DNA of 64,000 nt from a virus. Lineage: Duplodnaviria > Heunggongvirae > Uroviricota > Caudoviricetes. A model generated the notes under the pieces. It worked only from the letters and a program-made list of their open reading frames with translations, did not search any database and was not told the origin of the DNA. The stretch covers positions 26,530 to 90,529 of the IMG/VR virus record IMGVR_UViG_3300043436_003321; one strand, written 5' to 3'. The translations under genes and the position numbers were made by a program. Positions 26,473 through 62,767 of the stretch are shown here, piece by piece. The stretch's first letter is position 1, and each line of letters opens with the position of its first letter.

Positions 26473-27381
26473 TTACCTATAATCTTCTGAAGTGTGAATC
26501 GAAGCTTCTAATAAATTCAATTGCAATGTAAGTACAACTGGTTTACCACCTTCGAATAAGTGAAGTTGATTGCCTTCGTTAAATCTAACGTTGAATGATT
26601 GTATCATTGACGGCTTAAATTTATAATAGTACTCATCATTAATACCCAAGAACTTAATATTTACTAGATTTGGATATTTTAACAAGGCCTTTGTTTGCGC
26701 TATGGCACTAGTGCCGCCATATTCTGGTAACATAGCACCTTTTATAACCTTTATAATATCTCTTATTGTATTAGATTCTTCTTGTGATTTTGGCGAAACC
26801 GTCCACACGAAGTTGTGAAATTTAAGTCTTACCCCAGAAAAATCCACCGTAGTGTATGGATTTACGGCGCTGCCTGTATATAAGTCTGCTGCCAATCCAG
26901 CACCAGGCACTATAGAATCTAAAGCGCTTCGGCCTAACAGTTTGGCATATAGTTTATAATTCTCTAGTGATGCTTGAATTTCAGGGTTGCCTCCAAAACC
27001 AAGAGCCTCACCACTTGCACTTACCACATCTTTGGCAATATTATAAGCTCCTTCGGCGAAGGCGTCGACACCGCCAGAACCAATTGTTTGCATTGTTTGC
27101 AGTGCTAAAGCTCCAGTCACACCCAATTGCGCTTGATTAGAATCTATAGCAGTATCGTCAGATAAACTTGGTGGAATTGGAAGATATACGGTTTTAGTCC
27201 CACCAGATACATTTGCAAACCCGAACGTGCTACTATAACTATACGGAGTAAAGGACATAACCATACGAATCGCCCCAAGATCCTCGGGAAATACATAACT
27301 AGCTGATCTGGAATTTGACCGATTAATATCCATTACCTGTGAAGGTGGGGTGGCATGATTCCTTGAATATGGATCCATCAT
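26473..27381 (-). CDS. tail-tube-like baseplate protein (gp48/gp54 family candidate)
   Basis: 302 aa. First gene of the minus-strand late unit, with a TATAAATA late promoter 39 nt upstream. Beta-rich protein of tail-tube-initiator size. Confidence 0.4.
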   Translation of the reverse strand: MMDPYSRNHATPPSQVMDINRSNSRSASYVFPEDLGAIRMVMSFTPYSYSSTFGFANVSGGTKTVYLPIPPSLSDDTAIDSNQAQLGVTGALALQTMQTIGSGGVDAFAEGAYNIAKDVVSASGEALGFGGNPEIQASLENYKLYAKLLGRSALDSIVPGAGLAADLYTGSAVNPYTTVDFSGVRLKFHNFVWTVSPKSQEESNTIRDIIKVIKGAMLPEYGGTSAIAQTKALLKYPNLVNIKFLGINDEYYYKFKPSMIQSFNVRFNEGNQLHLFEGGKPVVLTLQLNLLEASIHTSEDYR

Positions 27382-31866: not shown

Positions 31867-32781
31867 TTAATCGTCTGCAAGATCTTTGAAGAATGAAATA
31901 TCAGTATCATCTTCATCATAGGTCGGAGATGGAGTTTCATCCAGCTTTGGAGCTTTGCGCTCTTTAAAGTTGGGGGTGAAGTCCATCTCCCCATCGTTAT
32001 CCTCAGCAGCACTGGATGTGGGTGCGCGAGTGCTACCGTCAAGGCCAAGAACGCGATACATTTTAGCCTTGAGTTCTTCATACGTTTTGAAGTTTTTAGG
32101 ATCGACGATATCTTTGAGAGAGTGTTCCTGCTTCCAAATAGCCTCAAGAGCATCGTCGTCATTATGAAGAGGTGCGGCCGGACTGAAGTCCGATTTGTCG
32201 TAGTTACGATAACCTTCATAGTTACGGATCTTAAGTTGGAAGTTAGCACCTTCCCACATGTCAAAAGGATTGACTTTTGCCTCTCCTTCATATTGTGGAT
32301 TCATAAGATCATTGAGCTTCTCAAAGATCTTTTTACCATACTTGAAGAGGAATACCTTACCCTCATTCTCTGGGCGTGAAGGATCGCGAACGACATACAC
32401 GTTAGAGACATAAGATAGGCGGCGCTTTTGTTTGCGAACAATCTCCTTATTCGCCTCAATGCCTGAATTCCAAAGTTCTGAGTTATATTCAGAAACTGGA
32501 TCGGGCAAACCAATAGTGGTCAGAGAGTTTTCGATATACCACTGGCCACCAGGCCCTTGGAACCCATGGTCCCACATGCGAATGAATGGCATATCTTCAC
32601 CAGCTGGGGCTGGGAGAAAACGAAGAACGGCATAACCATTGCCAGCCTTATCAAGGTCGGGCTTCCAATATTTACCTTCATCTTCGTTTGAATAACCGCC
32701 CTGATTCATTTTTGAAAGTTGCTCATTGAGCTTATTGAAAGATGAATTGCGGTTCTTTTTGAGGTCTGCGAAATTAACCAT
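31867..32781 (-). CDS. 32: single-stranded DNA-binding protein gp32
   Basis: 304 aa. Clear matches to T4 gp32: LDKAGNGYAVLRFLP, HGFQGPGGQWYIE, DPSRPENEGKVFLFKYGKKIF, MWEGANFQLKI, EGYRNYDKSDF, and an acidic C-terminal tail. Confidence 0.9.
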   Translation of the reverse strand: MVNFADLKKNRNSSFNKLNEQLSKMNQGGYSNEDEGKYWKPDLDKAGNGYAVLRFLPAPAGEDMPFIRMWDHGFQGPGGQWYIENSLTTIGLPDPVSEYNSELWNSGIEANKEIVRKQKRRLSYVSNVYVVRDPSRPENEGKVFLFKYGKKIFEKLNDLMNPQYEGEAKVNPFDMWEGANFQLKIRNYEGYRNYDKSDFSPAAPLHNDDDALEAIWKQEHSLKDIVDPKNFKTYEELKAKMYRVLGLDGSTRAPTSSAAEDNDGEMDFTPNFKERKAPKLDETPSPTYDEDDTDISFFKDLADD

Positions 32782-32806
32782 TATAGTAGTCTCCTTATGC
32801 GATATA

Positions 32807-33394
32807 TTAGCGGAATGTTTCGAGTATTAAGTCTTTTACTTTAGTCTTATCAAAAGTCATGAAAGGTCTGTACTTAACACATTTGTTCTTTATATCAGGC
32901 CAAATGATTTTGTCAACCAATTTTTTATCCCAATAATCAAAAACTTTTGTCACTTCATTTATCATAATCAATGACTCAGTATGAATCTGTCTTGACAAAT
33001 ACATTCTGAGGAGTTTTGGATGGTGACCATCACTCGTTAACAATTGACCGTCAAAGTCACCATCCAAACTATTTATATCCTGTTTAAAGGTGTACATTAA
33101 AGATTGTTGGACTTTTTTCCAATCCTTATATACATTCTCAGCGCCATCATTAAATAAATTGCCAACCCAAATTCTCGGATCATGCATCACATTGGCCAGG
33201 ATAAATTCTTTACCATCACTACGCTTCGAAAGTTTGTAGAAATGGTACTTATCGTTACGATTCTCAAATGCATCTATTGATGCGCTCACTTTACCATTAT
33301 ATTTAAAGAAATCGTACGAACTTGTGAAATGCTTTTTCAGTGCCAAATAATAGATATAGATGGCAAAAGCATCTTTGGTTGAATATATGCTCAT
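32807..33394 (-). CDS. 59: gp59 helicase loader (loads the gp41-type replicative helicase)
   Basis: 195 aa. Matches T4 gp59 (YDFFKYNGKV, RNDKYHFYKLSKR). Adjacent to gene 32 as in T4. Confidence 0.8.
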   Translation of the reverse strand: MSIYSTKDAFAIYIYYLALKKHFTSSYDFFKYNGKVSASIDAFENRNDKYHFYKLSKRSDGKEFILANVMHDPRIWVGNLFNDGAENVYKDWKKVQQSLMYTFKQDINSLDGDFDGQLLTSDGHHPKLLRMYLSRQIHTESLIMINEVTKVFDYWDKKLVDKIIWPDIKNKCVKYRPFMTFDKTKVKDLILETFR

Positions 33395-33621
33395 AGCGGT
33401 AGCTTGGCTGTCTTTTCTTCCAATAAATTAAGCCTTTCGGCATCATCACGAACTTTTGATTTTAAAACTACCGAGCGCCGAATAATGTCTCCAAGTAATT
33501 CTATTTCAATGTCATGTTGTTCGGCATAATAAACGATTGCATCTATCAATGATACATCAGTATTTGTATATTTCTCAATTTCTCTGAGAATAAATTCAGG
33601 GGTTAATGTATTATTGTTCAT
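33391..33621 (-). CDS. late-transcription accessory protein, gp33-like candidate
   Basis: 76-aa acidic protein in the gene-33 position upstream of 59-32. Called on synteny only. Confidence 0.3.
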   Translation of the reverse strand: MNNNTLTPEFILREIEKYTNTDVSLIDAIVYYAEQHDIEIELLGDIIRRSVVLKSKVRDDAERLNLLEEKTAKLPL

Positions 33622-34305: not shown

Positions 34306-35271
34306 TTATTTAAGAGCGGAAACCTCAGCTTGAGTAGCTGCAAGTTCTGGATCTGGCACAAGACCGTAATCAGCCAACGGCCCGCCAGGACCGGCCATTT
34401 CGTCGCTCACGAAGAACTCGACATATTCCTTTAGACCAGGAATAACACCGATATGAGCATTCTTCACATAGAAGAACAATGGGCGGCTGATTGGATAGTC
34501 ACCGCTTGAGATGGTTTCTACGCTTGGTGCTACACCACTAACAGTCGCAACTTCTAACTTGTCAGTGTTGTTCTGATAGAAGCTAAGACCAAACACACCA
34601 AGCGATGTTTTATTAGCATCAAGACGAGCAAGTGTCTCAGTATAATCACCATCGATGTCGACAGCGGCACCATCAGTTCTTACCTTTACGCATGCCTTTT
34701 TTTGATCGTCATCAAGTTTCTCAACACCGAGTACCGATTTGCAACCTGCTTCCATGACCTTTACATCAAACACTTCACGTGTACCGTGTTTGGTACCTGG
34801 AATGTAAGCAAGAATCTCTACTTCTGGAAGAGTTGAGTCGACTTCACTCCAGAGTTTAGCAGTGCTCGACTCATGTAGTGCGCTATAGAGTTGTTCAACA
34901 GTCAAGTCTTTGATGTTGAGCTGACCGATGTTTGAAGCAAACACGATGCCATCATAACCAATACGAACCTCAGTCACTTCACCAACAACTTCTTCGCACT
35001 TAGCCCATTCTTCATCTTTCATCTTTGAAGAACTATTTGCGATATCAACGGTGTTTTCACCAACACCTTCACAGAGCTTTTTGCGACCTGCACCTGATCC
35101 GCCACCTTCAACTACTGGCGAAGGAAAGTCAAAATTTTCACCAAATGCTTCTGAAACAATGGTTGCATATGGCAGGACAGTAGACGATCCTGTGACTTGG
35201 ACATTATCTCTTGCAAATGCAGTAGATGCTGCAGCCAAGACCAATGTAGTGCTAAGTAAAAGTACTTTCAT
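34306..35271 (-). CDS. pstS: periplasmic phosphate-binding protein PstS (auxiliary metabolic gene)
   Basis: 321 aa. N-terminal signal peptide MKVLLLSTTLVLAAASTAFA. PstS-type motifs VQVTGSSTVLPYAT and DYPISRPLFFYV. Has its own upstream intrinsic terminator and a Pho-box-like direct repeat. Confidence 0.85.
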   Translation of the reverse strand: MKVLLLSTTLVLAAASTAFARDNVQVTGSSTVLPYATIVSEAFGENFDFPSPVVEGGGSGAGRKKLCEGVGENTVDIANSSSKMKDEEWAKCEEVVGEVTEVRIGYDGIVFASNIGQLNIKDLTVEQLYSALHESSTAKLWSEVDSTLPEVEILAYIPGTKHGTREVFDVKVMEAGCKSVLGVEKLDDDQKKACVKVRTDGAAVDIDGDYTETLARLDANKTSLGVFGLSFYQNNTDKLEVATVSGVAPSVETISSGDYPISRPLFFYVKNAHIGVIPGLKEYVEFFVSDEMAGPGGPLADYGLVPDPELAATQAEVSALK

Positions 35272-35443: not shown

Positions 35444-35833
35444 TTAGAAGCTAAGTGATAGACCAACAATGCTGTCAACATATCCGAAGTCACCATCAAA
35501 GTTATTCTCGATGTAAGCTTCTACACTTGCAGGACCTAGGTCAATGTTTGGCACATAGGTTGCACCAAGAACGGCACCTTCGAAAGCAGAACGATCAAAC
35601 GAGATAAACTCATCGCCATCATAGATAGCAAGATCGGTTTCGGCCCAGATGCCAAGACCTTCGATTGGTGCATATGCAAGACGTGGGGTTAGAACAGAAG
35701 TGAAGACGGTGGTGTCGGTGTTATATTCAGTAACAAGCTCAGTGTTAAGAGCAAGGCCGTTACCAAAATCAAGAGCGGATGCTGCAGAAGTCATAGCGAG
35801 CATAGCAGCAGTTGCAAGAAGAATCTTTTTCAT
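35444..35833 (-). CDS. small secreted beta-rich protein, outer-membrane-protein-like (C-terminal Phe)
   Basis: 129 aa. Signal peptide MKKILLATAAMLAMTSAASA. Alternating hydrophobic pattern and C-terminal ...GLSLSF, typical of beta-barrel OMP termini. RBS AAGGA. Confidence 0.45.
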   Translation of the reverse strand: MKKILLATAAMLAMTSAASALDFGNGLALNTELVTEYNTDTTVFTSVLTPRLAYAPIEGLGIWAETDLAIYDGDEFISFDRSAFEGAVLGATYVPNIDLGPASVEAYIENNFDGDFGYVDSIVGLSLSF

Positions 35834-35854: not shown

Positions 35855-36140
35855 GAGTTACGGCCCGTTCTGTTTCTAGGTGGAACCATACCCAAGTGCT
35901 TATGCAGCTAGTGCGTAAGCCTGAGGAGCAAAGTTATCGTTTGCATTTGTATGTTTGGCTGAATAACGTAGGCCAACACGGTAATCTCCACTTGCTTTCA
36001 ACACCTGTCGATCCTAATTTCGACCCCAGCAAAAGTGGTCTGACTTCACAGACTGTAGACTGAACTAGGTCTAGCACTTATGGTGGAGTCGCTGGGTACC
36101 GCCCCCAGGTCCAGAATGTCTATCGTCTGTTTCAACGATT
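35855..36140 (-). ncRNA. ssrA: circularly permuted (two-piece) tmRNA, ssrA
   Basis: On the minus strand the coding piece starts at 36027. GGGGUCGAAAUUAGGAUCGACAGG closely matches the E. coli tmRNA 5' end GGGGCUGAUUCUGGAUUCGACGGG. The tag reading frame GCA AAC GAU AAC UUU GCU CCU CAG GCU UAC GCA CUA GCU GCA UAA (35944-35900) encodes ANDNFAPQAYALAA*. The acceptor piece lies upstream (36120-36081): T-arm-like CUGGG-GGCGGUA-CCCAG, then CGACUCC-A-CCA. The 3' strand CGACUCC pairs with the 5' GGGGUCG and gives a G3:U70 wobble, the AlaRS identity pair. A 53-nt intervening segment separates the two pieces, the order typical of alphaproteobacterial-type permuted ssrA. Promoter directly upstream. The 3' boundary is uncertain. 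Confidence 0.75.
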
Positions 36141-36180
36141 ACTAGTTATATATAAACCATGTTGAGCAAATGTCAACGAT
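36141..36180 (-). promoter_or_regulatory. sigma70-like promoter for the tmRNA (TTGACA-N17/18-TATATA)
   Basis: Minus strand atcgTTGACAtttgctcaacatggtttaTATATAac. The -35 box is 36176-36171 and the -10 about 36152-36147. Same -35 hexamer as the phage early promoter family. Confidence 0.55.
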
Positions 36181-36229
36181 AAAAATCCCAATTGTGAATT
36201 ATGTTACTTTTATGTCACACCACTTTAAG

Positions 36230-36368: not shown

Positions 36369-36866
36369 TTACGAATCCTTGTAGAAAATATGATCGCCAA
36401 TGCGAATAGTCCGTTCATATGACTTACGCCAATACGGTTTCACATAAGTTGCATGAAACATAATAGCGCCGTCTGTCGGGTCTTTATATGTTCGAGGATT
36501 ATAATATCGTGTATATACCAAACTAGCTAATTTTTTAGCTCTAATCCAATCCTCTTGGTTTTTAGGCGTGTCTGACTTTCCGTCATGTGTCCAACTAAAT
36601 TGTGAATCTTGCCAAACGACATCGCAAATAGTATTTGGATATCCTTTTGAATGTACTCTATTGAGAGTCACCCAGGCAATTGCTTTTTGCCCTAAATCAG
36701 ATTGATCTCTGGCTTCGAAGTAAATATTCTTGGCCAAACATTCAATTTGTTTATAGTGTTCATTATATACATTCCTTTGTTTATCAGTATTTTGAGCTTG
36801 AACACTAGTATAATCCAACCCTACCGTGAATAGTAAGGTTAGAATGAATAGAGTTTTCTTTTTCAT
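36369..36866 (-). CDS. secreted cell-wall hydrolase, SleB/CwlJ (Hydrolase_2) family; endolysin candidate
   Basis: 165 aa. Signal peptide MKKKTLFILTLLFTVGLDYTSVQAQ. Hydrolase_2 motifs ECLAKNIYFEARDQS, AIAWVTLNRV, ICDVVWQDSQFSW. Preceded by a perfect TTGACA-N17-TATAAT promoter. Confidence 0.75.
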   Translation of the reverse strand: MKKKTLFILTLLFTVGLDYTSVQAQNTDKQRNVYNEHYKQIECLAKNIYFEARDQSDLGQKAIAWVTLNRVHSKGYPNTICDVVWQDSQFSWTHDGKSDTPKNQEDWIRAKKLASLVYTRYYNPRTYKDPTDGAIMFHATYVKPYWRKSYERTIRIGDHIFYKDS

Positions 36867-36892: not shown

Positions 36893-36931
36893 AGTACCAT
36901 TATACACGTATGCTATGGTAATGTCAACCAC
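36893..36931 (-). promoter_or_regulatory. sigma70-consensus promoter (TTGACA-N17-TATAAT) for the cell-wall hydrolase gene
   Basis: Minus strand tggTTGACAttaccatagcatacgtgTATAATggt. The -35 box is 36927-36922 and the -10 box 36904-36899. Confidence 0.6.
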
Positions 36932-38964
36932 TATTTTGTGGTTGCCCTGAAAATGCCATCCCAGTCGGCAGACAACGGTTGCGTTTTCATGAATTCACAG
37001 CGTTCGATCCACATCTTATAGTATCCTTCCATCTTACCATCGAAGTGATGCATAAGAAGTTCGCATAAAGTCTGGGCTTTTGTGAATTCCTGATTGCGAT
37101 ACATTCGAAGCATTTCATCATGCTTCTTTTTGGCTATATCCCAAGCCTGTTTTGGATCATCAAGTACCGTATAGATACGTAATCCAACTGTTTTACCTTT
37201 TACGGCTAGTTCATCTAGCTCAAGGTAGAAAAAATCATCCTTTGTTCGTTCATATGTGGTTGGCCCTATAATCAATAACACACCATACGACTTACACTGG
37301 CCTTCCAGTCGTGCCGTTGTCGATACGGCGTCGCCTAGAACGTCATAGCTGTGGCGTTGTGTTGACCCCATCTCACCGATATAACCCAACCCAGTATTGA
37401 TACCAGCACCCATGCCAACCTTTGGTCGCCCTTTGGCAATCAACTGTTCATTAAACTTTTCAACCGCCTTGATCATATTCAAGCCAGTTTGTACCGCTGA
37501 TTTAGGATGATCTGGATCATCAATAGGAGCGTTGTGGATATGCATTGATGCATCACCAATGTATTTAATGATCATACCTCTGGCGTCAAGAACTGGTTGT
37601 GTAATCGCATCCATATAACCATTCATCACCTCAGTCAGACCTTTCACATCATCGCCGAACGATTCCCCAAGTGGTGTAAAGCCGCGAAGGTCAGAGAAGC
37701 AAATAGATACCTCCTTCTTAATTCCATCCTTGACAAGTTCTGGATTTCGTTGTAATATTTCAACTACCTCAGGTGAAGCATAACCGCCAAATTGTTTCTT
37801 AATTCGCATTTTGGCAAAGTATTCTTGACCATACTTAAGTCCGTAGACGTGCGCAAAGATAAGAACCGCCAATGCACCAGAGATTGCAGTGTTTACCAAG
37901 ATATAACTTGTAGCAAACGCATAGAACGGATAGTAAATGGCAGCGCCGATGAGTAGGATAGGTGCCATCCAACCGAATCGCACATACGACGTAGCTACGA
38001 TGAGCAGACCGATTAGAACGATTGAGCCTAGTTTATATAGATCCGCCTCGAGTGGTGTAACGATGTTGTATTCGTTGACTACAGATGCAAAGGCCGAGGC
38101 TGTAATGTCATGTCCATACATTGGCCCAGTTGCGGTAGGCACTGGATTGGACAATCCTTCTGCCGTAAGGCCTACAAATACTGTAGCACCTTTCAGGTCG
38201 GGAAATTCATCGTCAAGATTATATCGCTGAAACTTATAGTTTGGATTGATCCAGATTCGACTTAGAGTGTCAGTATTGATTGTCGGGAATCCCTTTACTC
38301 GTACTGCTTCAACACCTAGGTCGCCAGTTTTTACCTGATACGTTTCGGTGTCCATATAGACTTTTAGAATCTCGAGTACAACAGATGGGTATAGAGTTTC
38401 ACCTACGGCTGATATCATAGGAAGACGACGGACAACTCCATCAATCTCTGGTACAGTGCTTGCAATGCCAATTCCGCTAGCCCTACGTTCATACTCGCCA
38501 ATATTAGCAGCAATGCCAGGATAGTTGGGAACATAACCAATAGCGCGATTACCAACTTCAGCGATGCCTGTAGTATAGGCTGCCCTCCCGTCAGTTTGTG
38601 TTGAAGGAAAGTGTGATATGATAACGCCTTGGCCCAATAGTTCTTTAAATAGTTCATCTTGTCCTGTCCTATCTTCTTCTGGGAAAGAAATGTTGAATAC
38701 GATTGCCCCAGCATTCGCTAGTCGTAAGTTTTGGATAAGTTCGCCATACACATTACGAGGGAATGGATACTGACCATGCTTTTCAAGCGTGTCTTCCGAT
38801 ATATCTATTAATGCAATATCATCAACTGATATTTGTTCTTGAACAATTAACTGGTCAAAGAATTTAAGTTCCACATTTTGCATAAATGTTGGGTTTAATA
38901 AGATTATCCAGGCGAGTAATACAGTGGTAACAAGCGCCCAAAGCGGAGATAATAGCCATTTCAT
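36931..38964 (-). CDS. CHASE2 sensor domain-containing class III adenylate/guanylate cyclase
   Basis: 677 aa. N-terminal TM helix, then a periplasmic domain of about 300 aa of CHASE2 type. Multi-TM region (residues 310-380). C-terminal cyclase catalytic domain with VSICFSDLRGFTPLGESF, KYIGDASMHIHNAP and GMGAGINTGLGYIGEMGSTQRHSYDVLGDAVSTTARLE motifs. 4-nt overlap (ATGA) with the upstream FecR-like gene. Confidence 0.85.
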   Translation of the reverse strand: MKWLLSPLWALVTTVLLAWIILLNPTFMQNVELKFFDQLIVQEQISVDDIALIDISEDTLEKHGQYPFPRNVYGELIQNLRLANAGAIVFNISFPEEDRTGQDELFKELLGQGVIISHFPSTQTDGRAAYTTGIAEVGNRAIGYVPNYPGIAANIGEYERRASGIGIASTVPEIDGVVRRLPMISAVGETLYPSVVLEILKVYMDTETYQVKTGDLGVEAVRVKGFPTINTDTLSRIWINPNYKFQRYNLDDEFPDLKGATVFVGLTAEGLSNPVPTATGPMYGHDITASAFASVVNEYNIVTPLEADLYKLGSIVLIGLLIVATSYVRFGWMAPILLIGAAIYYPFYAFATSYILVNTAISGALAVLIFAHVYGLKYGQEYFAKMRIKKQFGGYASPEVVEILQRNPELVKDGIKKEVSICFSDLRGFTPLGESFGDDVKGLTEVMNGYMDAITQPVLDARGMIIKYIGDASMHIHNAPIDDPDHPKSAVQTGLNMIKAVEKFNEQLIAKGRPKVGMGAGINTGLGYIGEMGSTQRHSYDVLGDAVSTTARLEGQCKSYGVLLIIGPTTYERTKDDFFYLELDELAVKGKTVGLRIYTVLDDPKQAWDIAKKKHDEMLRMYRNQEFTKAQTLCELLMHHFDGKMEGYYKMWIERCEFMKTQPLSADWDGIFRATTK

Positions 38965-39998
38965 TGTTGTATGATCCTCACGTTATTACTAGATCGTTCA
39001 TCTAAAGTTAGAATATTTATAGTAGTGCTACCCTGGTTTAAAATCATTCCAACCCCAACACTTTCATCAAATTTATAGTTGACAGATTGATTCGAGCCAA
39101 ATCTCACCACGTTCACAGTAGGAGCATCAATTACAGTAACGACACCAGTCACTGGATTCGCCCCAGCAATAACACCGTCCGGATTCTTTTCGAGTGCACT
39201 AATATCCAATTCATTTTCTAAAAGAACCGCTTCTAGCGAATTGATTGACAGATCATCAAACTTGAGTTCATCTACCTTAAGGTCACTAAAATCTAATAAA
39301 TCCTCGTCGAGTTCATTAATATCAAGAGGTGATGAATTTTCATATGCTTCTTTTTCTTCAAGTGATTTTGGTTTACTTACGATCAATAAATTGTTAATCT
39401 GGTCACCAGTAATATCAAGAACTTTTGGCTCACTTGGGGCACCTGATCTGCTAGTTACAAGAGTTGCTTGAAAGGCTCTATTAAGTAATACATAGCCCGC
39501 ATCGGTCGATACTATAATCGACCCAATACTTCCGTCAAGATTTGGGACCAAAATTACTAACGATTTACCAATTTCATCAACTGTCATATAGAAAGCAGTA
39601 CCGCGAACAGCAATAGTAGCCGAGGGTGTTTGTATGTCAACTGTGTCTGGATTATTGTGTGCGATGTTACCAGAGGCATACTTTACAGTACCCATTGCGA
39701 CCTTCAACCCCAATGAGCCTTGAGAGGTTGACGGATCGTACACAAAGTCGTCAATAACTAACTCAGAATGTTCACCAATGTGAACCTGAGTCTCGTCGTC
39801 AAATGTAATCCCTACTTCACCCTTGGCGGTTTGTACATAATCATCCATTTCGACGGCCAGGCTTAAGTCGGCGTCAAGTTTTTGTTTTTGACGCTCGACT
39901 AAACCTGACCCATTGAATTCTGTAATCGAACCTATTTCTGCATAAACTATAGTGGGATTAATCAGACTGAGTAATAGTAATAGTCTGATTAGAGCCAT
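38961..39998 (-). CDS. FecR-domain periplasmic protein (usual partner of CHASE2 cyclases)
   Basis: 345 aa. Signal peptide MALIRLLLLLSLINPTIVYA. The N-terminal half has a FecR-like pattern (GEVGITFDDETQVHIGEHSELVIDDFVYD...ATIAVRGTAFYMTV). The acidic C-terminal half is repetitive. Confidence 0.55.
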   Translation of the reverse strand: MALIRLLLLLSLINPTIVYAEIGSITEFNGSGLVERQKQKLDADLSLAVEMDDYVQTAKGEVGITFDDETQVHIGEHSELVIDDFVYDPSTSQGSLGLKVAMGTVKYASGNIAHNNPDTVDIQTPSATIAVRGTAFYMTVDEIGKSLVILVPNLDGSIGSIIVSTDAGYVLLNRAFQATLVTSRSGAPSEPKVLDITGDQINNLLIVSKPKSLEEKEAYENSSPLDINELDEDLLDFSDLKVDELKFDDLSINSLEAVLLENELDISALEKNPDGVIAGANPVTGVVTVIDAPTVNVVRFGSNQSVNYKFDESVGVGMILNQGSTTINILTLDERSSNNVRIIQQ

Positions 39999-40638
39999 CG
40001 GTCACCATATTGATATTAGAAGCTGCGAGAGTAGTCGATTGGTCAATAGTAACAGTATTGTCATTCCCAACCATAGTCATTGTAATTGTATGGCCGTCTA
40101 AGGATGAACCATACCCAGTTTGAGTAATATCGAAAGCATTTGTGTCACCGGTAACATTAACTGTATGTGTAGCTCCATCTGAATCAATAGCCATCGTAAA
40201 GGTATTATCCTCTCCGGCAATATTATATGTAAGCGTAGTATATTCAGCACTGGAATTTTGTCCCATTTCAAGATCAATCATGTTATAACTTCCAGTGATA
40301 TTAAACGTAAGTGTGCTGTATGAGCTCAACGTTGCTAACCAATCGAATTCGTTGCCGTCTCCGACCTGGTTAAGTGTATATGTAAGACTATCACCGCTGA
40401 CAGTCCCTCTTAGTTTGTTCAAATCGCCTTCTTGGTTGATTGTATATGTCTGATCGTCACCGTCAATTGTAAAGTATGGAGAAGGTGCTGATACGTCTCC
40501 AATCGCATTGCCATCACCAGATTTCTGTGTGATAGCCATAGTTAAGTTTTCGCCGGCCTGATCAATGTAAATTGATTGATCCGCCATAGTTGCAAAAGGC
40601 ACCATTACAAAAATACTTGTAATAGCTAAGTTTTTCAT
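39958..40638 (-). CDS. secreted curlin-repeat protein (CsgA/CsgB-like amyloid subunit candidate)
   Basis: 226 aa. Signal peptide MKNLAITSIFVMVPFATMA. At least six imperfect repeats of the form (I/L)(D/N/T)Q.G(D/E).N resembling the curlin repeat S-x5-Q-x-G-x-G-N (IDQAGEN, ITQKSGDGN, INQEGDLN, LNQVGDGN, ITQTGYGS, IDQS). Immediately downstream of csgG. Confidence 0.55.
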   Translation of the reverse strand: MKNLAITSIFVMVPFATMADQSIYIDQAGENLTMAITQKSGDGNAIGDVSAPSPYFTIDGDDQTYTINQEGDLNKLRGTVSGDSLTYTLNQVGDGNEFDWLATLSSYSTLTFNITGSYNMIDLEMGQNSSAEYTTLTYNIAGEDNTFTMAIDSDGATHTVNVTGDTNAFDITQTGYGSSLDGHTITMTMVGNDNTVTIDQSTTLAASNINMVTDGSNQTITITQSD

Positions 40639-40648
40639 TTTTCCCTCT

Positions 40649-41386
40649 CTACCAAAGTCCTTGTTTCTTGCCCTTTAAAGTTAACTCATATACTGCTTTT
40701 TCGATCGCAGTTTTAATGGCAAAACTAGAAGCTTCGTTTGTGTTTGTTCCTGTTTCCAATTCTAAGGTTTGCGTGTCCTGGTCAAAGAATTTCATGACAG
40801 TCATATTATCGCCGTAAGCCAAAACTTCTTTCTCGACGATAATAGTTGATACTACTTCTGTTGTTGCAACTGATACTGCCCTGAGAGCAATCGTAACAGT
40901 ATGTCTGCTATATTCTTTTGATGCACCGATGCCGAATATTCTGGCACCTATGCCACCAGATGTCGTATTGACATCATACCCAACGATACCACCTTCGATT
41001 ATGATTCCGGCGTAAAGCATTACTGGTAGATCGCTGTCCTTTATTCCAGGTTCTACAGTTTCTCTTGCCGATCTGATAATCTGTCGTTCACGTACTATAT
41101 TATCAATGCCTTTACGTTCAACTACTCGATACCATGTACCATTAGAGAATTCTTTTAAAGCATCAATAAGGAAATTTTCAGCGCCTTGTGTCACAGCTGT
41201 CGAGAGAGTCGTACCAGCCCTCTGACCTGTGAGATCATTATAACCATATACGGCAACAATCACTCTACCTCGCTCTGGCGGCGGTAGTACGTATGATGTA
41301 GGTTGTACAACCTCAGGAGCTGTCGTCTGAAGCGATTCTGTTGTTGCACATGCCGATAACAATATGAGAAGAATCAACCACTTCAT
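40649..41386 (-). CDS. csgG: curli production assembly/transport lipoprotein CsgG
   Basis: 245 aa. Lipoprotein signal with lipobox LLSAC. Strong alignment by eye to E. coli CsgG: RVIVAVYGYNDLTGQ vs KIFVSVYNIQDETGQ, LIDALKEFSNGTWYRVVERKGIDNIVRERQIIRSARE vs LVTALKDSRWFIPLERQGLQNLLNERKIIRAAQE, GIVGYDVNTTSGGIGARIFGIGAS vs SIIGYESNVKSGGVGARYFGIGAD. Confidence 0.85.
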   Translation of the reverse strand: MKWLILLILLSACATTESLQTTAPEVVQPTSYVLPPPERGRVIVAVYGYNDLTGQRAGTTLSTAVTQGAENFLIDALKEFSNGTWYRVVERKGIDNIVRERQIIRSARETVEPGIKDSDLPVMLYAGIIIEGGIVGYDVNTTSGGIGARIFGIGASKEYSRHTVTIALRAVSVATTEVVSTIIVEKEVLAYGDNMTVMKFFDQDTQTLELETGTNTNEASSFAIKTAIEKAVYELTLKGKKQGLW

Positions 41387-41862
41387 AGTCCGAAATCTCC
41401 TACCGGTACTTCAATAGTGGTTGTCTCGCCTTCAGGATTCGTAATAGTCAGCGTGATTGTATCGCCATTATTGTAGTACTCAATTGTATTGCCAAGAATT
41501 TCTATTATGCCCGAGTCGTTTCCGTCACCATTGAAGATGGCGTCCACCAACTCTTTTGATATCTGTGCATAAACCCTGGATTCAATGTTGCGTAGGAACT
41601 TATTCAAATTTGAATTCTCAAGTTCTCTTTCAATCTCTGCCGCCAAAGCCTCGGCCTTATCGTCAAGTCGTTGCTGATTCTTCTGCGTCATTTGATCTAG
41701 GGTCAGAACGTGCGAAGACCATCCGATCCCAGAGAAGGACGGATTTGAAAACTGATATCCTTCCTGTGCTACGACTCTACTTGGCGTCAGGTTTATAAGC
41801 GTTAGGATCACCAGTAGAGTTAAAAATTTTGCTTTTACTCTGATATTTTGTAATAATTGCAT
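41383..41862 (-). CDS. csgF: curli assembly protein CsgF
   Basis: 159 aa. Signal peptide, then EGYQFSNPSFSGIGWSS matching the CsgF N-terminal FQFRNPNFGG motif. C-terminus EGETTTIEVPVGDFGL matches CsgF TGQTSTIQVSGL. 4-nt overlap with csgG. Confidence 0.7.
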   Translation of the reverse strand: MQLLQNIRVKAKFLTLLVILTLINLTPSRVVAQEGYQFSNPSFSGIGWSSHVLTLDQMTQKNQQRLDDKAEALAAEIERELENSNLNKFLRNIESRVYAQISKELVDAIFNGDGNDSGIIEILGNTIEYYNNGDTITLTITNPEGETTTIEVPVGDFGL

Positions 41863-42127
41863 CCATCTCGGCCTTTTCGGTTGAATCTAGATGTGTTCTG
41901 TATTCTAAAACCATAGCCAATTTCATATTGAGACGAATCAAGTCGTTGTCAAGCATTCGAACGCGATCTACTAATTTAATAAGTGTACCCATAGCTTCAC
42001 CCAGAACTGGGTCAATTGTTTCAGTCACCCATTTCCATATAAAAAAGATAAAGTACCCCATACCAAAAGCGGCAATGATGGGAAAGCCATAATCCTTAAT
42101 GTACTGTGCTATATCTATATCCATCAA
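41777..42127 (-). CDS. BhlA/UviB-like holin-like membrane protein (paralog 2)
   Basis: 116 aa. N-terminus MMDIDIAQYIKDYGFPIIAAFGMGYFIFFIWKW has one TM helix, then a coiled region (LDNDLIRLNMKLAMVLEY). The pattern resembles BhlA-family holin-like proteins. Its 3' end overlaps the csgF start by 86 nt. Confidence 0.45.
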   Translation of the reverse strand: MMDIDIAQYIKDYGFPIIAAFGMGYFIFFIWKWVTETIDPVLGEAMGTLIKLVDRVRMLDNDLIRLNMKLAMVLEYRTHLDSTEKAEMDAIITKYQSKSKIFNSTGDPNAYKPDAK

Positions 42128-42402
42128 TCTCTCCTTGCATCGTCCTTGCCTTCATTTGCAGCCATACGATCTACGTTTGGCTTTACATTCAAAGCATAAC
42201 TAAGAAGAGCATCGATCTTGATCAAATCATTGTTCATTGTTTGGACTCTATTATCCAAACTGCTCATAATATTCTTTAAGGTGGCCACAGAACCAGTAAC
42301 ACTTGCCAGAATAAACTTCAGCGTAATAAACACAAAGGCCCCAGCCGCCAGAGCACTGGCTATCGGAAACCCGACTTCTGATACAAGAGATAAAAAGTCC
42401 AT
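42124..42402 (-). CDS. BhlA/UviB-like holin-like membrane protein (paralog 1)
   Basis: 92 aa. MDFLSLVSEVGFPIASALAAGAFVFITLKFI...LDNRVQTMNNDLIKIDALL. Same architecture as the downstream 116-aa gene. TATAAATA late promoter 21 nt upstream. RBS GAGGTG. Confidence 0.45.
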   Translation of the reverse strand: MDFLSLVSEVGFPIASALAAGAFVFITLKFILASVTGSVATLKNIMSSLDNRVQTMNNDLIKIDALLSYALNVKPNVDRMAANEGKDDARRD

Positions 42403-42422
42403 ATGTCACCTCACTTCCAATC

Positions 42423-42430
42423 TATTTATA
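42423..42430 (-). promoter_or_regulatory. T4-type late promoter TATAAATA (minus strand) for the holin-like/csgFG/curlin/fecR/cyclase operon
   Basis: Plus-strand tatttata at 42423-42430 reads TATAAATA on the minus strand. It is followed by gattggaaGTGAGGTGacatATG of the first holin-like gene. Confidence 0.5.
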
Positions 42431-42525: not shown

Positions 42526-42852
42526 ATGGCAAGACAACCAAAAACACTACAACAAGATTCCAAATATAATGGATTCGATGCCGACGGCGATGGTGTGGTA
42601 AGTGACGAGGAAATGGCACAGGCCGAGAAGATCATAGACATTGAGAATCGCGATAAGAAAGAAGATCAACTTCGCCAAATGGCTTGGGTTGCAATGCTTT
42701 CTATGGTTGCATTTACCATCGGACTATTTCTTCCATTCCTGTCAGTCGAGCGTTTAATGGCACTCGACAATCTACTTTCAATGTTCTACATTGCTCAGGC
42801 TGGTGTAGTAGCATCATTCTTTGGCTCAAGCGCCTATATGAGCCGCAGCTAA
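42526..42852 (+). CDS. small membrane protein with EF-hand-like Ca-binding loop
   Basis: 108 aa. DADGDGVVSDEE matches the DxDxDG EF-hand loop. Two predicted TM helices (MAWVAMLSMVAFTIGLFLPFL; VVASFFGSSAYM). Strong RBS. Only plus-strand gene in this region. Confidence 0.5.
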   Translation: MARQPKTLQQDSKYNGFDADGDGVVSDEEMAQAEKIIDIENRDKKEDQLRQMAWVAMLSMVAFTIGLFLPFLSVERLMALDNLLSMFYIAQAGVVASFFGSSAYMSRS

Positions 42853-42853
42853 T

Positions 42854-42877
42854 AAAAAAAGGGAGCCCAAGGCTCCC
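42854..42877 (-). terminator. intrinsic terminator (possibly bidirectional) between convergent genes
   Basis: GGGAGCC-CAA-GGCTCCC hairpin (42861-42877) with an A7 run on the plus side, so U7 follows on the minus strand. A second hairpin GAAGCGGC-TTAG-GCCGCTTC overlaps the stop of the 316-aa gene. Confidence 0.65.
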
Positions 42878-42902
42878 CAAGTTAGGTTAAGGAGGAAGCG
42901 GC

Positions 42903-51639: not shown

Positions 51640-52587
51640 TTACTTCACTACATCCATGAACGGAACAGTCGAGTCTGGGATCATAGTGGTAGGAAGAGCA
51701 CCATTCCACTTCTCAGCCTGAACTAGAGCAATCAGACCAGCGTTATCCTTAAGAGCCTCTGCTTTCGCCTTAATGGCAGATGCCTCTGCTTCACCACGGA
51801 TGCGAGTTGCTTCAGCTTCTGCGGTTGCTCGAGCGAGTTGAGCATCAGCTTCTGCTTGAGCCTGGATTACGGTAATCTCAGCAGTGACCTTTTCACGCTC
51901 AGCGTTCTGACGAACTTTCTGCACTTCAACCTCTGCAAGCATACGAGCTTCAATCGAGTTCTCATAAGCATCAGAGAAGTCAATGTTCTCGATCTGAACT
52001 GATTCAACAATGATAGGACCGATTACAGCCTTCTGAATTGCCATCTGAACTTCTGCGGCGAGACGTTCACGCTCCTGAATAGCAGTCGAAGCGTTAAACT
52101 TACCAAAGACGTTCTTGACTTCTTCAAGAACCTGGCGATCGAGCAAACGAGAAATTACACCAGCTTCGCCACCATATTCACGATAGATTGTCTCGACTTG
52201 ATCTGCAGGGAAGCGATAGTTAACGGATAGGTTCAGACCCGCAGTCTGTTGATCACGAGAATAAGCAAGGATATTCTCATAAAGTTGAGCCTGCGATTGG
52301 ACGCTAATGTCGACTACACTTTCAATCAAAGGCAGTTTAAAACCAAGACCAGGATCGGCAGTGCCAATAACTGCACCGTTACGCAATTGCACACCACGAT
52401 AGCCTTCATTCACAGTGTACCACGAACCACCAATCACAGTCAGCGCGGTAAGACCAACAAGAGCAGCAAAAGTACCACCAACGACAACATTCATTTTCAT
52501 TTTCCTTTTATATTCATCATATTGTTTCAAAGCATCCGTATATTCGCGCTGTGTTCCAAAATCCCACTTATCAGGCCTTTTCATCAC
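51640..52587 (-). CDS. SPFH/band-7 (prohibitin/HflKC-like) domain protein
   Basis: 315 aa. N-terminal TM helix, then the SPFH core (YTVNEGYRGVQLRNGAVIGTADPGLGFKLPLIESV), then an Ala/Glu-rich coiled coil. Confidence 0.8.
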   Translation of the reverse strand: MMKRPDKWDFGTQREYTDALKQYDEYKRKMKMNVVVGGTFAALVGLTALTVIGGSWYTVNEGYRGVQLRNGAVIGTADPGLGFKLPLIESVVDISVQSQAQLYENILAYSRDQQTAGLNLSVNYRFPADQVETIYREYGGEAGVISRLLDRQVLEEVKNVFGKFNASTAIQERERLAAEVQMAIQKAVIGPIIVESVQIENIDFSDAYENSIEARMLAEVEVQKVRQNAEREKVTAEITVIQAQAEADAQLARATAEAEATRIRGEAEASAIKAKAEALKDNAGLIALVQAEKWNGALPTTMIPDSTVPFMDVVK

Positions 52588-62058: not shown

Positions 62059-62246
62059 TAATTCAAGCCCTCGTATTTTGCTTTTAGTCGAGCGAGTTCG
62101 GCTCGTTCTTTACGTTCTTTGTCTTTACGCAGCCATCTGATATAGATATCTTGGTCGTATGTGCGATCCTTGTTGCAGCATTCCCATCCGATAGGACCGC
62201 AATCGGTAAGTGGTTGTTTACACCCTTCACATACTAACTCAGTCAT
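62058..62246 (-). CDS. small Cys-rich (zinc-ribbon-like) protein
   Basis: 62 aa. CEGC...C...CC pattern. Confidence 0.45.
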   Translation of the reverse strand: MTELVCEGCKQPLTDCGPIGWECCNKDRTYDQDIYIRWLRKDKERKERAELARLKAKYEGLN

Positions 62247-62767
62247 TCGATTACCTCGTTTGGAAACTTTTCTGTTGGTACAAACACGTATTCAGGTTTA
62301 TCCGGCTGTGTCCAAGGAAACTCGATAAACACTCGGCTTTCACGACCCGTATAGTAGTCCTTATATGGTTTACCTTCGTCAATATCTGGCGACGAATACC
62401 ATTCCCAGAACACTCGTCCGTCCATCCAGTATGGTCGACCATCTTCATCCTTAAAGACAGAACTGTTACGTTTGTTCTGCCATACATCAGGACCTACTTC
62501 AGTCCACTCGTCAGATTCGCCAGTCAAAGGCGCAATAGGTTTCCATGATGCAAGCTTCTCAAACAGAGCTACTGCATACGGCGCTGACATACCGCTGTGA
62601 CCTTGTTCTGAGAACACTTTCAGAAGTTCGAGCGTTCCTTCTGCTAGCCAACGGTTAGGTCCATCTTCTGGATCATTAATATCATATCCAGCCAGTTTAA
62701 GTTCGGCTTCCGCCCATTTCAACATGTTGCTCATTTGCTTTCCTCTATTAGATTTTTCAAGCGCCAC
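62243..62767 (-). CDS. hypothetical protein
   Basis: 174 aa. Confidence 0.5.
   Translation of the reverse strand: MALEKSNRGKQMSNMLKWAEAELKLAGYDINDPEDGPNRWLAEGTLELLKVFSEQGHSGMSAPYAVALFEKLASWKPIAPLTGESDEWTEVGPDVWQNKRNSSVFKDEDGRPYWMDGRVFWEWYSSPDIDEGKPYKDYYTGRESRVFIEFPWTQPDKPEYVFVPTEKFPNEVIE

Follow-up and report, generated by a model that had tools for sequence, protein, structure and literature searches.

The window considered in this report is a stretch of 64,000 nucleotides (nt) from a virus of the class Caudoviricetes (IMG/VR record IMGVR_UViG_3300043436_003321, positions 26,530 to 90,529). Its subject is a block of seven contiguous open reading frames (ORFs) on the minus strand, 36931-42402, which encode two small membrane proteins, relatives of the curli secretion proteins CsgF and CsgG, a subunit of the curlin type, a protein with a FecR domain, and a class III nucleotide cyclase that carries a CHASE2 sensor. 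The block is a further, compact seven-gene member of a known viral curli module, here in a different T4-like lineage. Its function we infer from the genes and their relatives: we consider it moderately probable that it is a curli-like type VIII secretion system (T8SS), in which late export of a curlin fibre via CsgG/CsgF is coupled to a FecR-CHASE2 sensor that signals through cyclic AMP (cAMP).

The seven genes and their products

The ORF check returned all seven genes at the coordinates of a first-pass annotation made from the sequence alone (Table 1). Its description of seven minus-strand genes with 4-nt ATGA overlaps is borne out; the two overlaps, csgF/csgG and fecR-like/cyclase, are both real. 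The 3' end of the gene for small protein B overlaps csgF out of frame by 86 nt (41777-41862, minus strand); overlaps of this type, 64-70 nt long, also occur in two related loci (L002 and L004). Public gene calls give small protein B 115 amino acids (aa) and begin csgF at an internal Met (102 aa), with the loss of the signal peptide and of a conserved N-terminal motif. The Pfam scan proposed at the first pass gave the expected identities for CsgG, CsgF, the curlin-type subunit, the FecR-domain protein and the CHASE2 class III cyclase, and all block proteins except the curlin subunit match PHROG families.

Table 1. Genes and transcription signals of the block (positions in the window)
Feature	Position	Strand	Properties
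Small membrane protein A	42124-42402	-	92 aa; phrog_18771 E=1e-30; no Pfam match
Small membrane protein B	41777-42127	-	115-116 aa; paralog of A with variable charged tail; phrog_18771 E=7.5e-29
CsgF-like protein	41383-41862	-	159 aa; Pfam PF10614 E=5e-15; phrog_35372
CsgG-like outer-membrane lipoprotein	40649-41386	-	245 aa; Pfam PF03783 E=8.6e-42
Curlin-type beta-solenoid subunit	39958-40638	-	226 aa; Curlin_rpt PF07012, 20.5 bits (cut-off 20.7)
Secreted FecR-domain protein	38961-39998	-	345 aa; Pfam PF04773 E=6.8e-10
CHASE2 + class III cyclase	36931-38964	-	677 aa; PF05226 E=3.1e-36, Guanylate_cyc PF00211 E=4e-15
TATAAATA box, T4-type late-promoter consensus	42423-42430	-	21 nt upstream of the ATG at 42402
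Second TATAAATA box	39014-39021	-	within the 3' end of fecR-like; 50 nt before the cyclase ATG
Terminator-like hairpin	42860-42878	-	8 pairs, then a T run; 5' boundary of the block
Perfect sigma-70-type promoter TTGACA-17-TATAAT	36899-36927	-	directly after the cyclase stop; 3' boundary of the block

The first-pass annotation considered both CsgG and CsgF unmistakable by comparison with E. coli. This holds for CsgG, which matches the E. coli CsgG structures with E=5.7e-39 and has an LSAC lipobox whose Cys13 is invariant in the homolog alignment. It does not hold for CsgF, which is recognised via its Pfam profile only (model positions 6-132 of 132); a phmmer comparison of the solved E. coli CsgF with the window protein returned nothing at E<=1. 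The window CsgF has a signal peptide and the motif YQFSNPSFSG at the mature N-terminus.

The 226-aa protein is a genuine curlin-type beta-solenoid subunit. It has a signal peptide followed by about eight strand-turn-strand repeats of the form T-x-T-[ILV]-N-x-x-G-[DE]-x-N, its AlphaFold2 (AF2) model from a 56-sequence alignment contains 17 strands (pLDDT 86.6), and the family profile matches structure 8c50 with E=4e-10; a Foldseek search with the subunit gave nothing significant. The CsgG lipoprotein, CsgF (by Pfam) and a secreted curlin-repeat subunit are common to the window and the E. coli curli system, whereas the window proteins score far under the NCBIfam equivalog cut-offs (CsgG 144.6 against 505, CsgA 24.7 against 160). 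CsgE and CsgC found no match among the 20 block and flanking proteins scanned, in line with the earlier remark that no CsgE homolog is present, and the block leaves no room for an eighth gene.

The FecR-like protein consists of a signal peptide, the FecR domain, an acidic linker and a small C-terminal domain ending in NNVRIIQQ. The role of a FecR-type anti-sigma regulator was rejected: by eye the signal peptide runs into the FecR domain and there is no anti-sigma domain. A periplasmic partnership with CHASE2 suits the protein better than a part in iron regulation. Neither a sigma factor nor a TonB receptor was found among the block proteins scanned, and PF04773 is the only domain shared with FecR regulators.

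The last protein of the block comprises one transmembrane (TM) helix, a periplasmic CHASE2 domain, a hydrophobic stretch (three TM helices by eye), a cytoplasmic cyclase domain and a helical C-terminal tail. Its best PDB matches are adenylate cyclases of the Cya2 and CyaB types (E down to 1.6e-23). Alignment to these shows that both metal-binding Asp residues, the Lys/Asp pair specifying adenine and the transition-state Arg are present, within the signatures CFSD, K-Y-I-G-D and Y-D-V-L-G-D...A-R-L-E; the cyclase is likely, as far as its active site can be read from the alignment, to synthesise cAMP. A Pycsar reading was also considered and set aside: PycC models match with E=7.6e-14, the match is confined to the cyclase domain (residues 416-555), and no effector accompanies it. 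Neither the block nor 10 further proteins scanned from the early region of the window yielded a domain or receptor that binds cyclic nucleotides.

Relatives in phages and bacteria

The phage is an uncultured T4-like myovirus with distant cultured relatives. Genes for gp32, gp59 and a gp33-like coactivator of late transcription are located at 31867-33621; the best cultured matches of gp32 belong to Sinorhizobium phages phiN3/phiM12 (57%), with cyanomyophages next (about 52%). A megablast search of phage records with the block gave no match at the DNA level, and its relatives were reached by protein-level searches only.

The statement of the first-pass annotation that this combination belongs to no canonical phage module proved to be wrong. 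Searching 50,697 phage records by tblastn with CsgG, the cyclase and small protein A returned, apart from weak unrelated matches, exactly Pelagibacter phage HTVC008M and four Melnitz isolates. The annotations of HTVC008M and of Methylophilales phage Melnitz show the same gene order, next to gp32. The module is not new, since this order has been annotated in marine phages since 2013 (HTVC008M, Zhao 2013) and has been described in the literature. A curli cluster in pelagimyophages was reported together with a proposal of “sibling capture” (PMC7029224); the module of Melnitz was described with a proposed role as a pore in lysis timing (PMC9004378); and the full module, also found in HTVC023P-type podophages, was defined as “HK”, CsgF, CsgG, CsgA/B, FecR, a second CsgA/B and adenylate cyclase (PMC9599517). 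The last paper also notes that the viral module lacks CsgE, is present at all 65 GOV2.0 stations and is expressed according to metatranscriptomes.

The window has the components and the order of this pelagiphage-type T8SS, the optional second curlin gene being absent. As in Melnitz and HTVC008M, the module adjoins gp32/gp59, and a transfer-messenger RNA (tmRNA) gene lies nearby as in Melnitz. Protein identity is 35-50% to HTVC008M and 30-73% to Melnitz, whereas the phage backbone, judged by gp32, is nearer to the Sinorhizobium phages and cyanomyophages named above.

A synteny search of related phages and metagenomes, which the first-pass annotation had proposed, recovered the conserved order in many loci. 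In IMG/VR, a scan with a single protein gave one locus and an alignment-based scan gave the full set: CsgG relatives are encoded on at least 588 contigs of several phage types. We scanned 92 related loci with family hidden Markov models (HMMs) made from the window proteins. The number of loci with a match was 92 for both CsgF and CsgG, 89 for a curlin-like protein, 83 for FecR and 63 each for the cyclase and the small proteins; missing genes are mostly explained by contig ends. With s for a small protein, F, G, C, R and Y for CsgF, CsgG, curlin, FecR and cyclase, and C2 for the second curlin/PA14 protein, at least 18 loci have the order F-G-C-R-C2-Y with the small pair convergent downstream, at least 15 have s-s-F-G-C-R-C2-Y, and 5 of the 92 have the form of the window, s-s-F-G-C-R-Y. 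The module-bearing metagenome contigs include ones of 159 kb and 94 kb, contigs with a T5-like small terminase (L008/L009) and jumbo contigs of 204 kb (L006) and 340 kb (L011); the module thus extends beyond the myo- and podo-pelagiphages of the cited papers. On the 340-kb contig the module stands beside genes for HSP70, heme oxygenase and bilin reductase.

The two small proteins form orthologous subfamilies: A, of 92 aa, ends in DRIARADGKxDARRD, and B, of 100-130 aa, has a variable tail. Their alignment shows that both have a GFPI motif, one TM helix and a conserved helix with the pattern L-x-D-R-x-R-M-L-D-N-D-L-I-R-L. The AF2 model of A is a single continuous helix (residues 3-91, pLDDT 77.8), and A has more than 1347 metagenomic homologs. 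Neither protein matches Pfam, NCBIfam or PADLOC, and phrog_18771 is a family of unknown function. Among the 50,697 phage records the small proteins are limited to the six in which the module is present. The pair belongs to this module specifically, and a late-promoter box usually stands before it, as described below. We take the pair to be the component labelled “histidine kinase” in PMC9599517, a label that was tried and not retained: a kinase of this kind would have a conserved phospho-acceptor His and an ATPase domain, whereas A has no His at all and the alignment has no conserved His column. All 605 clusters (at 50% identity) consist of stand-alone proteins of 61-157 aa, and a PDB profile search gave weak coiled-coil matches and no kinase; for these reasons the label is unsupported. 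Identity with YvrJ or BhlA-like proteins, suggested by the GFPI motif, found no support in Pfam even at E<=10.

The late box reported at 42423-42430 by the first-pass annotation is real, and a ribosome-binding region GGAAGTGAGGTGA lies between it and the first ATG. Contrary to what had been stated, it is not the only promoter candidate of the block: the second TATAAATA box may be an internal late promoter, given its position before the cyclase gene. In the whole window TATAAATA was found 9 times against 5.8 expected, so there is no window-wide enrichment; sigma-70-like matches within the block are at chance level (37 found, 28 expected, standard deviation 7). The hairpin, a strong one, closes the transcription unit of the upstream DUF932 gene, and the perfect sigma-70-type promoter, which stands before a gene for a SleB-type cell-wall hydrolase, ends the unit of the block.

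For comparison, up to 80 nt upstream of genes in the related loci were inspected, with other ORFs of at least 100 aa as background. Before the first small gene, TATAAATA occurs in 16 of 51 distinct upstream regions against 3.6% of other ORFs (Fisher p=1.3e-10), and NATAAATA in 25 of 51 against 9.7% (p=6e-12); the enrichment holds both for upstream pairs and for convergent downstream pairs. Neither box was found upstream of csgG (0/92 each), the curlin gene (0/89 each), fecR (0/83 each) or the second small gene (0/60 each). Upstream of the cyclase, TATAAATA was found in 3 and NATAAATA in 14 of 62 regions. Because the box is conserved before the first small gene in the relatives and the phage encodes a gp33-like coactivator (Pfam E=1.3e-11), both a box near a gene and the coactivator of a T4-type late promoter being at hand, late expression of the block is plausible on comparative grounds.

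FecR and the CHASE2 cyclase are a pre-existing bacterial gene pair. A scan with the FecR alignment, one genome per species, gave 10 phage-like contigs binned into metagenome-assembled genomes (MAGs), 8 of which carry CsgF and CsgG, and 70 bacterial FecR loci. A CHASE2 protein is encoded within 8 kb in 27 of these 70. In seven MAG loci (Myxococcota, deltaproteobacterial, spirochaete and unclassified proteobacterial) a CHASE2 cyclase is adjacent downstream on the same strand, and the bacterial CHASE2 cyclases align along the full phage cyclase profile (positions 8-675). In Burkholderia, a “BiofilmReg” operon linked to biofilm combines LysM-FecR with a CHASE2 histidine kinase (PMC5192318). Like the window, then, the bacterial pairs encode a secreted FecR-domain protein directly upstream of a CHASE2 sensor; unlike it, their FecR partners have no acidic linker, and their cyclases have the signature K..S..N..R instead of the K..D..S..R of the window clade. 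CsgF or CsgG was found near none of the 70 bacterial FecR homologs. The FecR/CHASE2-cyclase pair and the small proteins accompany CsgG in phages and were not found beside it in the bacterial loci examined; the absence of these components from bacterial T8SS operons was also reported in PMC9599517.

In SAR11 single-cell genomes (Pelagibacteraceae; L108, L116, L119, L121, L123, L130 and L168), the gene for a CHASE2 protein of 685 aa, whose C-terminal half appears by eye to be PP2C/SpoIIE-like, is followed about 3.3 kb downstream by one for a FecR-domain protein of 190 aa. SAR11, a host of pelagiphages, thus has such a pair of its own, and the phage versions might mimic it or interfere with it.

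The FecR-like and curlin proteins have a similar phi-x-phi-x-Q ending, scored here as [ILVMF]-x-[ILVMF]-x-[QN] within 6 residues of the C-terminus. It is present in 67 of 83 FecR-like proteins, 42 of 83 first curlins and 40 of 67 second curlins, against 33 of 688 other ORFs of at least 150 aa. Bacterial FecR homologs have it in 1 case of 77, full-length phage-like FecR proteins in MAGs in 9 of 9. Along the C-terminal half of the FecR-like alignment, Q344 alone is nearly invariant. The resemblance is suggestive of a C-terminal link between the FecR-like protein and curlin.

Proposed function and its alternatives

Late in infection, the Sec and Lol pathways would place CsgG in the outer membrane of the host, where CsgF would cap it. 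The curlin subunit would then be exported and would polymerise into amyloid-like fibres on the infected cell; the secretion substrate is retained, since a curlin-like gene accompanies the module in 89 of the 92 loci. By analogy with the bacterial pairs, the FecR-domain protein would be the periplasmic partner of CHASE2, and the cyclase would turn an envelope cue into cytoplasmic cAMP. The phi-x-phi-x-Q strand common to the FecR-like and curlin proteins suggests that what is sensed may be the export or assembly of curlin itself. The two small membrane proteins would serve as module-specific accessory subunits.

It is tempting to go further and to regard the FecR-like protein as a two-ended adaptor, its FecR domain on CHASE2 and its acquired C-terminal strand on curlin subunits or fibres. 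With such an adaptor, cAMP made by the cyclase would signal the state of curlin export or assembly, the adaptor could stand in for CsgE, and the small bitopic proteins would be obligatory membrane subunits. We regard this extended version as rather speculative and would expect it to fail more readily than to hold.

Several observations weigh against the proposed curlin-fibre export and its coupling to the sensor. The constriction loop of the window CsgG is 3 residues shorter than in E. coli, and shorter too than in the pelagiphage module; the position of Tyr51 is deleted, Asn55 is replaced by Thr and Phe56 by Leu, in E. coli residue numbering. Compared with E. coli csgBAC-csgDEFG, the block is not only without CsgE, CsgC and CsgD: its single curlin gene has no separate nucleator (CsgB) beside it, and as we read the sequence, the Gly-rich N22-like targeting segment is absent from the subunit. 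Also lacking is the second curlin/PA14 protein, which in most other loci and in the pelagiphage module is encoded between FecR and the cyclase. In the cyclase, the canonical transition-state Asn (V-N-x-A-x-R) is replaced by Ser (A-V-S-T-T-A-R-L-E), a change that could affect activity or product; the window/Melnitz clade has this Ser throughout, whereas cyclases of HTVC008M-type phages and the bacterial FecR-linked cyclases keep Asn. As to the C-terminal resemblance, hhalign places the last 32 FecR-like residues on the last curlin repeat end to end with P=2.6e-4 and a probability of just 42%, the C-terminal HMMs of the two families barely cross-detect, the similarity is short, and the curlin HMM has no match to FecR-like proteins at E<=10; the link therefore rests on the short motif and a weak hhalign match. 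Finally, neither cytograms nor transmission electron microscopy showed clumping of cells infected by Melnitz in the study of Buchholz et al. (PMC9004378).

The role of an outer-membrane pore in lysis, or that of one in uptake, is less likely than curlin-fibre export. In the former, put forward for Melnitz in PMC9004378, CsgG/CsgF would time or assist lysis in a pinholin- or secretin-like manner, with the small proteins as holin and antiholin and the hydrolase as endolysin. The late-type promoter, the altered constriction loop and the secreted SleB-type hydrolase encoded directly downstream are all consistent with it, and the small proteins do have the general architecture of holins, being short, with one TM helix and a charged C-terminal tail. 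The first-pass annotation called them holin-like, yet Pfam, PHROGs and NCBIfam contain no holin family that matches them. As they are confined to module-bearing phages among the records searched, related phages lyse without them. They are also slightly more conserved than other module proteins (in the 42 loci with all seven proteins, the median identity to the window is 50% for the small proteins, 46% for CsgG and 30% for curlin), and such conservation is atypical of holins. The hydrolase is found near the module in only 4 of the 92 loci and has its own sigma-70-type promoter here; the persistence of a curlin substrate with a signal peptide in 89 loci is not accounted for, and a nanometre-scale pore in the outer membrane would not by itself lyse the cell. 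We therefore hold a lysis role to be improbable.

A still less probable account is that CsgG, in the absence of a CsgE gate, is mainly an open outer-membrane conduit through which, during infection, the periplasm of a nutrient-limited host receives more nutrients or cofactors, as discussed in PMC7029224 and PMC9599517. CsgE is indeed not detected among the proteins scanned, and 1.7 kb downstream of its module the phage encodes a PstS-like phosphate-binding protein; in jumbo contig L006, too, the module is followed by a PBP_like_2 gene. However, a PstS homolog detectable by phmmer is present in 1 of the 92 loci, namely the window itself, and the conduit leaves the conserved CsgF, curlin, FecR-like and cyclase genes unexplained. 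Moreover, alphaproteobacterial modules, which the viral ones resemble, are also without CsgE, as well as CsgC and CsgD (PMC9599517). As for the concern, raised at the first pass, that the block is host DNA misassembled onto phage DNA, it is true that curli, FecR and CHASE2 genes are typically bacterial and that the GC content of the block is slightly above that of parts of the flanks. The concern is refuted by four independent assemblies from different samples (L172-L175), which have the same order of DUF932 gene, 108-aa gene, seven genes and hydrolase. At both junctions they run on collinearly with the window, with 91-97% identity (L174 96.7% over 9.9 kb, the others about 91%). The same synteny is found in cultured phage genomes, and the PHROG matches of all proteins but the curlin subunit point the same way; we give a chimera practically no credence.

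Curli modules of phages are abundant in the ocean, as the GOV2.0 stations (PMC9599517) and the IMG/VR contigs show. If infected cells do grow amyloid fibres under curlin-fibre export, aggregation, superinfection and carbon export would be affected. The instance in the window extends the module beyond the cultured lineages of pelagiphages and OM43 phages, and its compact seven-gene version is suited to heterologous expression. The analysis adds to the published descriptions the prior existence of the FecR-CHASE2 cyclase pair in bacteria, the specificity of the small pair together with its late box, the phi-x-phi-x-Q ending and the Ser-for-Asn cyclase clade. Three leads narrow the hypotheses: the pairing in bacteria, the C-terminal motif common to FecR-like and curlin proteins, and what speaks against the labels “histidine kinase” and “holin”.

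Neighbouring genes

The hydrolase downstream of the block (36369-36866, minus strand) is a SleB/Hydrolase_2 protein (Pfam E=2.1e-25; an endolysin by PHROG) whose N-terminus has a signal-like segment. Its gene is followed by that of a permuted, two-piece tmRNA of the alphaproteobacterial type (35856-36195, minus strand; Rfam RF01849 118.8 bits, RF04321 123.2 bits), for which ARAGORN gives the tag peptide ANDNFAPQAYALAA. A similar tmRNA gene lies near the curli module of Melnitz, and distant blastn gave partial matches only, to Sinorhizobium phage Phosso and to Phaeobacter and DSS3 phages. The tmRNA type and the relatives of gp32 hint at an alphaproteobacterial host.

Next comes a secreted protein of 129 aa (35444-35833, minus strand), which ends in LSLSF, with a C-terminal Phe as in outer-membrane beta-barrel proteins; it has no Pfam, PHROG or NCBIfam match, and its gene is conserved in L172 and L173. 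The PstS-like protein is encoded at 34306-35271 (minus strand; PBP_like_2 E=1.4e-50). The early region encodes a Tad3-like Thoeris inhibitor (62243-62767, minus strand; Pfam PF25185 E=1.6e-38) and an SPFH/Band 7 protein (51640-52587, minus strand; E=1.2e-30).

The flanks had been described as bona fide phage genes, all on the same strand. The former is correct for gp32 and gp59; the latter is not, as the gene at 42526-42852, between the block and the DUF932 gene, is on the plus strand, the only such gene in the neighbourhood. Its product is a membrane protein of 108 aa (phrog_27150) with an EF-hand-like DADGDGVVSDEE loop (weak EF-hand matches), and the gene is kept at the same position in L172-L175.

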